A stretch of DNA of 2,508 bases from Naegleria gruberi (taxonomy: Eukaryota): assembly GCA_000004985.1 (NCBI GenBank), contig GG739257.1; one strand, given 5' to 3'. Under the pieces are notes generated by a model. It did no database searches, had not been told where the DNA came from, and saw nothing but the letters and a program-made list of their open reading frames with translations. Every line of letters begins with the position of its first letter. The first letter of the stretch is position 1. This document shows, in pieces, positions 1,120 through 2,508 of the stretch. A program made the translations under genes and the position numbers.

Positions 1120-1196
1120 TCCTAATTATTAATTAAAATACGAGTAAACATGTTGTATCCATTAGAAGATAAAGTATTAATGTGAAGATAGAAAAT

Positions 1197-1273
1197 CCAG
1201 CAGAGAGTATGTTTAATTTGGCTTTTTGTTGATTTTTATTCACCAATATCCAAAAAATAACCTATTCCCAAAT
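1197..1273 (+). repeat. Degenerate TIR-like fragment (possible relic of a related insertion)
   Basis: ccagcagagagtatgtttaat (1197-1217) resembles ccagaatgagagtatattaat at the element's left end. aatatccaaaaaataacctattcccaaa (1245-1273) resembles aatatccaaaatccatcccaaa from the TIR. The two parts are separated by ~27 bp of unrelated sequence (ttggctttttgttgatttttattcacc). The similarity is partial and was judged by eye. Confidence 0.25.
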
Positions 1274-1598
1274 ACAATAACCCTCATTCTCTAAATGATT
1301 TTCGCCCAATAGTGATTCTTCATCTCTTAATATTTTAGAATGTGATTTTTTAACCAATTCTCAATAGTATTAGTAAAGATAAGAAAAAAATTAGTGTTTC
1401 AATAGTAAACACACAAAATAAAGTTCAAATAATATTTAGACAATTGGGTATTAAAGCTCAGGGGCTGAACCACCTTAATGGTGAAACAGCCTGGAACCTG
1501 CTTTGAAGGATGTAAATCTTTATTACCAGACATTTCGAATAATTTTTTGAGCATGGAAAATTTTTAACAACTCGGAATTGAGGTTGCTTATTAAGCAT

Positions 1599-1606
1599 AC
1601 CAGAAT
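1599..1606. repeat. Left copy of the putative target-site duplication (ACCAGAAT, 8 bp; the core CCAGAA 1600-1605 is unambiguous)
   Basis: The 8-mer accagaat directly abuts the outer end of the left TIR. The identical 8-mer directly abuts the outer end of the right TIR at 2021-2028. The boundary bases (a at 1599/2021 and t at 1606/2028) could belong to either the TIR or the TSD, so the TSD is 6-8 bp. Confidence 0.55.
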
Positions 1607-1641
1607 GAGAGTATATTAATATCCAAAATCCATCCCAAACC
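1606..1641 (+). repeat. Left terminal inverted repeat of the MITE-like element
   Basis: A 36-bp block whose reverse complement is found at 1986-2021 with 2 mismatches (positions 22 and 26 of the repeat). It begins TGAGAG (or GAGAG if the first T is assigned to the TSD). Confidence 0.65.
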
Positions 1642-1671
1642 AGTTTTTGGATATAGGTGAATAAAAAATCG

Positions 1672-1702
1672 GCAAAAAGCCAAATTGAACCAAAAAGCCA
1701 AA
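1672..1702 (+). repeat. Left subterminal repeats of the element: two tandem-ish copies of (G/C)CAAAAAGCCAAA
   Basis: gcaaaaagccaaa lies at about 1672-1684 and ccaaaaagccaaa at about 1690-1702, some 65-95 bp inside the left terminus. The same 12-mer recurs near the right end at 1919-1930. Confidence 0.45.
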
Positions 1703-1916
1703 ATCTAAATCCAAAAATAAGTCAAGAAATTTCCACTAAAAAATGAATTATTTCAAAAATAAAATATTCCAAATTTATATCGAAAAATTGTTGATTTATT
1801 GCAATTAGTATTGATAATAATCTAATAAATATTCGTAGAGTGATTTGCCTGCATTCCTTGTTGACAATTGCTCAAACACGACACATTTTCAAATAATATT
1901 ATCCAATCCGAGATTT

Positions 1917-1931
1917 ATCCAAAAAGCCAAG
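1917..1931 (+). repeat. Right subterminal copy of the CCAAAAAGCCAA(G) repeat. A related aaaaagccatatccaaaaaaagc lies at 1962-1984.
   Basis: atccaaaaagccaag lies about 90 bp inside the right terminus, in the same orientation as the left subterminal copies. Confidence 0.4.
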
Positions 1932-1985
1932 CCCGTAAAAATTCAGCCAGATTGCCCTTTTTAAAAAGCCATATCCAAAAAAAGC

Positions 1986-2021
1986 GGTTTGGGATAGATA
2001 TTGGATATTAATATACTCTCA
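1986..2021 (-). repeat. Right terminal inverted repeat of the MITE-like element
   Basis: Forward sequence: ggtttgggatagatattggatattaatatactctca. Its reverse complement equals the left TIR at 34 of 36 positions. Confidence 0.65.
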
Positions 2022-2028
2022 CCAGAAT
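2021..2028. repeat. Right copy of the putative target-site duplication (ACCAGAAT)
   Basis: See the left copy. This is a perfect direct repeat in the same orientation on both flanks, as expected for a TSD rather than a continuation of the inverted repeat. Confidence 0.55.
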
Positions 2029-2396
2029 ATTTTCACTTTATTTTGTAATTTACAATCAGAAACAAGTCCATTCCTCATATTCAATCGGAATTCAACAGAG
2101 ATTCGAATAAGATATTATTATCAAAGGTTATAATTTTTGTAGGACTATAGTATGACAATTTGAGCAACAGGTTGCAAAGTTGATTCATTAAACAATATCT
2201 CAATCCTTGAGCTTTTAATGTGTTTGTTTTAATTAATATATATTTTATTATTTTGTGAATTTAAAAACATGTTGTTTTCCAAAACCACTATTTTATCTCA
2301 GTAAACCTCGATAGGAACATAAATTGTTGAAAAATGATTATAATGATACAACCTTTTTTTGATTACTCATATTACACTTTTTCAAATTCAAATTCA

Positions 2397-2461
2397 GTCT
2401 GTAAAATTATTAGACAACTCTGTAAAATAATTTCATTTCAATTACAGACCACTGTTATAAA
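2397..2461 (+). promoter_or_regulatory. Candidate promoter module: three spaced copies of (G)TCTGTAA (two direct, one inverted) followed by a TATAAA box. It may serve a gene lying beyond the window's 3' end.
   Basis: gtctgtaaaat is at 2397-2407 and tctgtaaaat at 2419-2428, 21 bp apart. The inverted copy ttacagacc (RC ggtctgtaa) is at 2442-2450. TATAAA is at 2456-2461, about 50 bp before the window end. In ~25% GC sequence a TATA-like hexamer alone is weak evidence; the triple motif is the notable part. Confidence 0.3.
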
Positions 2462-2508
2462 GGGTCTACTGGATTAACAATAATTGAAACCTTCTTTAAT
2501 AGCTGATC

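Follow-up and report, generated by a model that had tools for sequence, protein, structure and literature searches.

The HMG-CoA Reductase Locus and Its Host

The window, meaning here the whole stretch of 2508 bp that was analysed, corresponds to one entire orphan scaffold of the Naegleria gruberi reference assembly, with the partial gene model XP_002668160. The final 362 codons of the HMG-CoA reductase gene occupy its 5′ part (Table 1). At the amino-acid level this fragment is 100% identical to the N. gruberi protein XP_002670914, encoded on a scaffold of 243,952 bp, and the small scaffold duplicates the 3′ end of the reductase gene found there. The sequence-only reading of this DNA had assumed an AT-rich yeast as the host, an assumption contradicted by the identity of the reductase fragment to the protein of an amoeba. 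Such a short scaffold may represent an unmerged alternative haplotype, possibly owing to insertions in its 3′ flank.

The reductase stop codon is followed by 1.4 kb of AT-rich DNA, in which the longest open reading frame does not exceed 51 amino acids. Scans of positions 1090–2508 for Rfam families, tRNAs, Pfam domains and promoters or terminators returned nothing meaningful. Within this flank, a short patch at 1440–1520 differs in composition from its surroundings (G+C of about 0.35 vs. about 0.25); Rfam, tRNA and Pfam searches gave no match to it. The structure described below begins 517 nt past the stop codon, in agreement with the distance of about 520 bp given earlier. Its ends, the flanking direct repeats, the repeated motifs near both ends and a partial relative located closer to the reductase gene are listed in Table 1.

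Table 1. Features of the 2508-bp window, in order of position (position 1 is the first nucleotide of the scaffold).
Feature	Position	Strand	Description
HMG-CoA reductase, last 362 codons	stop codon ends at 1089		5′ part of the window
Putative relic of a related sequence	1203–1256	-	1211–1256 against the reverse complement of element positions 38–84: 42/47
Left copy of the target-site duplication, ACCAGAAT	1599–1606	.	alternative: CCAGAA at 1600–1605, if T1606 is a base of the element
Whole candidate non-autonomous element, 414 bp	1607–2020	+	AT-rich; no open reading frame above 47 aa; DNA fold pairs the ends
Left terminal inverted repeat, GAGAGTATATTAATATCCAAAATCCATCCCAAACC	1607–1641	+	similarity to the right arm goes on with indels to about 1667
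Hairpin-forming pair in the left arm	1619–1654	+	ATATCCAAAA at 1619–1628 and TTTTGGATAT at 1645–1654, 16 nt apart
Left subterminal repeat block	1674–1717	+	AAAAAGCC at 1674 and 1692; ATCCAAAA at 1709
Right subterminal repeat block	1913–1985	+	ATCCAAAA at 1917 and 1973; AAAAAGCC at 1921 and 1963
Right terminal inverted repeat	1986–2020	-	GAGAGTATATTAATATCCAATATCTATCCCAAACC as read on the minus strand; mirrors 1607–1641
Right copy of the target-site duplication, ACCAGAAT	2021–2028	.	alternative: CCAGAA at 2022–2027

Inverted Ends and the Flanking Direct Repeat

[quoted passage not shown] When indels are allowed, the similarity of the two arms can be followed over 64 alignment columns at 82.8% identity, to about 1667 on the left and about 1958 on the right, so the earlier proposal that the inverted repeat is extendable with indels holds. 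The terminal octamer GAGAGTAT is present at both ends, and the terminus reads GAGAG. The arms, which differ from each other by indels, enclose a unique core of about 280 nt.

The direct repeats ACCAGAAT stand flush against both inverted ends, and the perfect 8-bp repeat abutting the two outer ends, as first described from the letters of the sequence, is thereby confirmed. The exact border between the repeat and the element can be placed in two ways. T1606 and A2021 are complementary to each other, and they are also the last base of the left and the first base of the right direct repeat, so that with a duplication of 8 bp the element measures 414 bp, and with one of 6 bp (CCAGAA) it measures 416 bp. 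The 8-bp duplication is the simplest reading, and the 6-bp one is possible on a single copy; a reading with a 9-bp duplication fails. The initial description counted T1606 and A2021 twice, as element and as duplication. Its inverted ends stand, and its counts of 34 matches in 36 positions and of 416 bp become 33 in 35 and, on the 8-bp reading, 414 bp. The predicted empty site, with one ACCAGAAT, would read ...gttgcttattaagcatACCAGAATattttcactttattttg....

In 500 dinucleotide shuffles of positions 1090–2508, the best 35-nt inverted match reached a mean of 21.7 and a maximum of 27 identical positions, against the 33 observed. The probability of an exact 8-mer repeat at two fixed ends is 6.8e-5 at the local base composition. 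When the window and 45.6 kb of DNA from related Naegleria were scanned for a 10-nt inverted seed accompanied by an exact duplication of 8 or 9 bp, this element alone emerged. The coincidence of the inverted ends and the flush repeat by chance is thus excluded. Folded as single-stranded DNA, the element is dominated by end-to-end pairing with z = -4.8, and none of 100 shuffled sequences folds as well.

Non-Coding Interior and Subterminal Motifs

No coding capacity was detected between the ends, as had been supposed: the longest open reading frame spans 47 amino acids. The element as a whole has no Pfam, Rfam or tRNA match. The stop-free segments of all six frames, joined into one query and compared with 5.8 billion proteins, found nothing at E <= 10.

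The region next to each end is occupied by short repeated motifs. For ATCCAAAA, 0.42 occurrences are expected in the window and six are found, five of them in the element; for AAAAAGCC, the expectation is 0.23 and five are found, four of them in the element. These observed-to-expected figures are generous, because both motifs were picked after viewing the sequence. All the occurrences fall in the outer 110 nt or so of the element or in the fragment at 1211–1256. Clusters of this kind resemble the subterminal repeats to which transposases bind, and a similar binding role may be suggested for them here from their placement. The left arm additionally contains the pair ATATCCAAAA and TTTTGGATAT, which can form a hairpin and is mirrored in the right arm. 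This pair, too, could represent transposase-binding motifs.

A Partial Relative near the Reductase Gene

About 350 bp upstream of the element, a stretch of 46 nt at 1211–1256 is 89% identical to the subterminal region of the element, with E = 9e-10 in self-comparison, and the sequence of the element is therefore not strictly unique. The fragment is directly preceded, at 1203–1210, by GAGAGTAT; apart from the ends of the element, the window contains this terminal octamer nowhere else. The letters before this octamer, CCAGCA, loosely resemble CCAGAA of the duplication.

The 37 terminal nucleotides that would be expected past 1256 are absent, the similarity there being no better than that of shuffles. 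The possibility that 1203–1293 is a complete deletion derivative was rejected on the same grounds, since the expected terminal 37 nt come no closer than shuffled sequence. The segment 1203–1256 is accordingly best described as a relic or a rearranged piece and not as a second complete copy. A further candidate, in which the element would be nested in an older inverted repeat (1328–1431 vs. 2028–2130), was also rejected, as 25% of null sequences align equally well.

Comparison with Other Naegleria Loci

Six further Naegleria loci (L001, L003, L004, L005, L007 and L008; 88 kb) contain neither a homologue of the element nor GAGAGTAT...ATACTCTC pairs, and one full copy was seen in the window and these loci together. 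The three loci checked for a long inverted repeat 3′ of HMG-CoA reductase (L001, L003 and L005) have none. An empty site is not provided by any of the six. The lack of a homologue at six loci together with the lack of an inverted repeat at three argues against an ancient conserved hairpin, and favours an insertion, as was originally proposed.

The closest relative of the window is L001, a Naegleria contig from an ENA metagenome, which is 97.7% identical over the coding part of the reductase. The similarity ends at window position 1133, i.e., 44 nt past the stop codon and before the site of the element, so that this contig gives no empty site. Past that point it carries a convergent gene of the DUF791/MFS_5 transporter type. 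The best match to this gene in N. gruberi, at no more than 62% identity, is on a different scaffold. The comparison of window positions 1134–2508 with positions 2616–3437 of L001 indicates that closely related lineages differ in structure at this locus.

The genes downstream of the reductase are different at the other loci. For N. fowleri, N. lovaniensis and another Naegleria (L003/L004), the next gene is one of about 840 amino acids on the same strand. This neighbour lies about 120–145 nt past the reductase stop codon in L003, L004, L007 and L008 and has no Pfam match; it is seen neither in the window nor in L001. The same four loci share the order of a DOCK/RasGEF gene, HMG-CoA reductase, the gene of about 840 amino acids, a minus-strand gene and MUS81. 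The minus-strand gene encodes 659 amino acids, or 328 as called in N. lovaniensis.

Just to the right of the duplication, on the minus strand at 2030–2051, lies TTACAAAATAAAGTGAAAAT, which over 23 nt is 91% like sites at L007 (16453–16475), L003 (16139–16161) and L004 (10177–10199), with E of about 0.04. In N. fowleri and in another Naegleria, the similar sites are located a few nucleotides upstream of the ATG of the 659-aa gene. Were the empty site reconstructed, an ATG on the minus strand (1598–1596) would stand 8 nt downstream of TTACAAAATAAAGTGAAAAT, opening a reading frame of only 46 amino acids. The resemblance is probably a chance one in AT-rich DNA.

The 20-nt end GAGAGTATATTAATATCCAA was also compared with large sequence collections. 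It has no match in IMG/VR, where the inner end pattern has none either. JGI metagenomes yielded one match, located in a DNA-ligase-like coding sequence, with the identity stopping at 20 nt; one match was likewise obtained among GTDB genomes, in a MAG of Treponemataceae, with the identity stopping at 22 nt. The number of such matches is about as expected, and they are due to chance.

A Probable Miniature Cut-and-Paste Insertion and Its Alternatives

The segment 1607–2020 is probably a single inserted copy of a MITE, a miniature and non-autonomous DNA transposon of the cut-and-paste type (class II). What speaks for this reading is that inverted ends and a flush direct repeat bracket a sequence with no coding capacity, that the motifs are clustered and that a partial relative lies nearby; DNA transposons are, besides, on record for Naegleria. 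Against it stand the single full copy seen, the chance-level matches of the 20-nt end, the lack of an empty site in L001, the ambiguous length of the duplication, the 9-bp duplications of the MuDR-type element reported in N. gruberi and the small share of transposable elements in Naegleria genomes. The signature of a cut-and-paste insertion that had been recognised at this site is present, being formed by the inverted ends, the flush direct repeat and the repeated motifs near both ends, and with 414 bp and no open reading frame above 47 amino acids the element is indeed miniature and non-coding. In the mechanism proposed for its origin, a DDE transposase, its gene located at another place in the genome, would be supplied in trans and would bind the inverted ends of about 35–60 nt together with the ATCCAAAA and AAAAAGCC motifs in the outer 110 nt or so of each end. 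The element would then be excised via double-strand breaks and joined to the target ACCAGAAT, cut in a staggered fashion, and the repair of the stagger would leave the flanking direct repeat. The mobility of the element, its transposase, the binding of the motifs and the superfamily are all deduced from sequence anatomy, and the steps are to be understood as a model.

An alternative is a non-mobile palindrome, for example a hairpin that is regulatory or acts in RNA, or an inverted duplication generated locally by replication or repair, next to which the flanking repeat would be coincidental. Such an origin would agree with the single complete copy seen and with the strong folding of the arms, and the fragment of the left arm found 350 bp away could reflect local duplication. 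It is nonetheless improbable. An exact 8-bp repeat flush with both ends would arise by coincidence with a probability of about 7e-5, no Rfam family matches the sequence, no such hairpin is present at three related Naegleria loci, and the element lacks a homologue at all six loci searched. Unlike the arms of a repair palindrome, moreover, those of the element differ by indels and lie on either side of a unique core of about 280 nt.

The least credible explanation is that the structure arose as an artefact of assembly or cloning on so small an orphan scaffold: the complete 2508-bp scaffold does duplicate the 3′ part of a gene on the 244-kb scaffold, but a chimeric artefact takes the form of a perfect palindrome or an abrupt join, whereas here the ends are 94% identical with indels, enclose a unique core and are flanked by a flush 8-bp duplication, and the motif clusters recur at both ends.

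Superfamily Affiliation

The MITE reading leaves several superfamilies to be considered as the source of the transposase. The element was at first attributed to the hAT superfamily, an attribution that is not secured: it was based only on the 8-bp duplication, and the inverted ends, from 35 nt to about 60 nt, exceed the 5–27 bp of hAT elements. To judge from the long inverted ends, the GAG terminus and the 8-bp duplication, a Mutator-like parent is no less likely than a hAT one.

A non-autonomous Mutator-like (MULE/MuDR) element is a possible, if tentative, identification. The terminus of maize Mu is GAGATAATTGCC, and the GAGAG terminus of the element resembles it. The 8-bp duplication falls within the 8–11 bp of MULEs, provided that T1606 and A2021 are bases of the target, and the inverted ends are long, with 35 nt near-perfect and about 60–70 nt detectable, which corresponds to the short end of the MULE range. 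Mutator-like elements in general have duplications of 8–11 bp and long inverted ends, an example being Spectre, with ends of 74 bp and duplications of 8 bp (PMC6446971). A full-length MuDR-type element (MuDRF) has been reported in N. gruberi itself (PMC3164196). The likeness to Spectre and MuDRF comprises the long inverted ends, a duplication in the 8–11-bp range and a terminus of the G-purine-G type, and is one of general description. Against this identification, MuDRF has duplications of 9 bp (PMC3164196), a length at which the reading of the present duplication fails, and no Mutator-like transposase is linked to the element, which at 414 bp is non-coding.

A MITE of the hAT superfamily, mobilised by a transposase of the BED / RNase-H-like / hATC type, is likewise possible, though doubtful. 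The terminal consensus of hAT elements is YARNG, and their target consensus is nTnnnnAn. GAGAG agrees with the former in A2 and G5 and departs from it at base 1, which is G and not C or T; the duplication ACCAGAAT agrees with the latter in A7 and departs from it at position 2, which is C and not T. The ends of a MITE can exceed those of its parent element, so that long ends weaken hAT membership and do not exclude it. Short subterminal repeats are typical of hAT ends. A duplication of 8 bp is the hallmark of the superfamily (PMC4316626), but the duplication considered here is possibly of 6 bp. The inverted ends of hAT elements measure 5–27 bp, with 28 bp as the longest known in 2014 (PMC4316626), compared with 35 nt at 94% identity, or about 60 nt with indels, in the element. 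No hAT transposase is linked to it.

A known system to which the element can be compared is mRover1, a group of hAT MITEs from Lachancea yeasts, which average 356 bp, have 8-bp duplications and contain a hexamer repeated 16 times (PMC4316626). The two have in common the size class, the non-coding character, the 8-bp duplication (on the simplest reading of the element), a subterminal motif repeated many times and a hairpin-like DNA fold. They differ in the ends, which in Rover span 18–20 bp and in the element 35 to about 60 nt, and in the host, a yeast in one case and a heterolobosean amoeba in the other. In addition, an autonomous parent with the same ends is known for mRover1.

Another superfamily, either P-like or a family with 6-bp duplications, is rather unlikely, though it deserves a place among the candidates. 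P and Merlin elements resemble the element in the length of the duplication (8 or 8–9 bp). Non-autonomous P elements with 8-bp duplications have been deposited for fungi (PMC3164196), and no P element tied to Naegleria was found in the literature searched. Merlin ends have a conserved terminal 5′-GG, in a survey that makes no mention of Naegleria (PMC8101967). The element departs from Merlin here, its terminus being GA at both ends (GAGAGTAT) and not GG.

Significance for Naegleria

Transposable elements of N. gruberi amounted to 0.28% in one survey (bioRxiv 10.64898/2026.06.24.734286), and most of the repeats of this species are unclassified (PMC12344493). In N. lovaniensis, interspersed repeats account for about 2%, with the DNA-transposon class at 0.68% in the repeat table (PMC6125883). 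The DNA transposons known from N. gruberi include a full-length MuDR-type element and Harbinger entries (PMC3164196). Descriptions of MITEs for Naegleria were not found in the literature searched; Repbase has curated N. gruberi entries, and the family of the element may already be deposited there. The element is probably of an ordinary type, from a host that has received little study; it would at best be another family of a familiar sort, and it adds nothing conceptually new on how such elements work.

A more far-reaching proposal is that the element belongs to an undescribed MITE family that has been active recently in N. gruberi, whose genome is poor in transposons, and that its insertion is heterozygous. 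This proposal is unlikely as it stands. If true, a heterozygous insertion would explain why the 2.5-kb scaffold was left unmerged in the reference assembly, and the family with its transposase would constitute a cut-and-paste system native to a heterolobosean; genetic tools are few in this group. If confirmed, the element would add one more DNA-transposon family where transposable elements are scarce. In practice, it could then serve as a marker for differences between haplotypes of strain NEG-M and as a lead to an active transposase.
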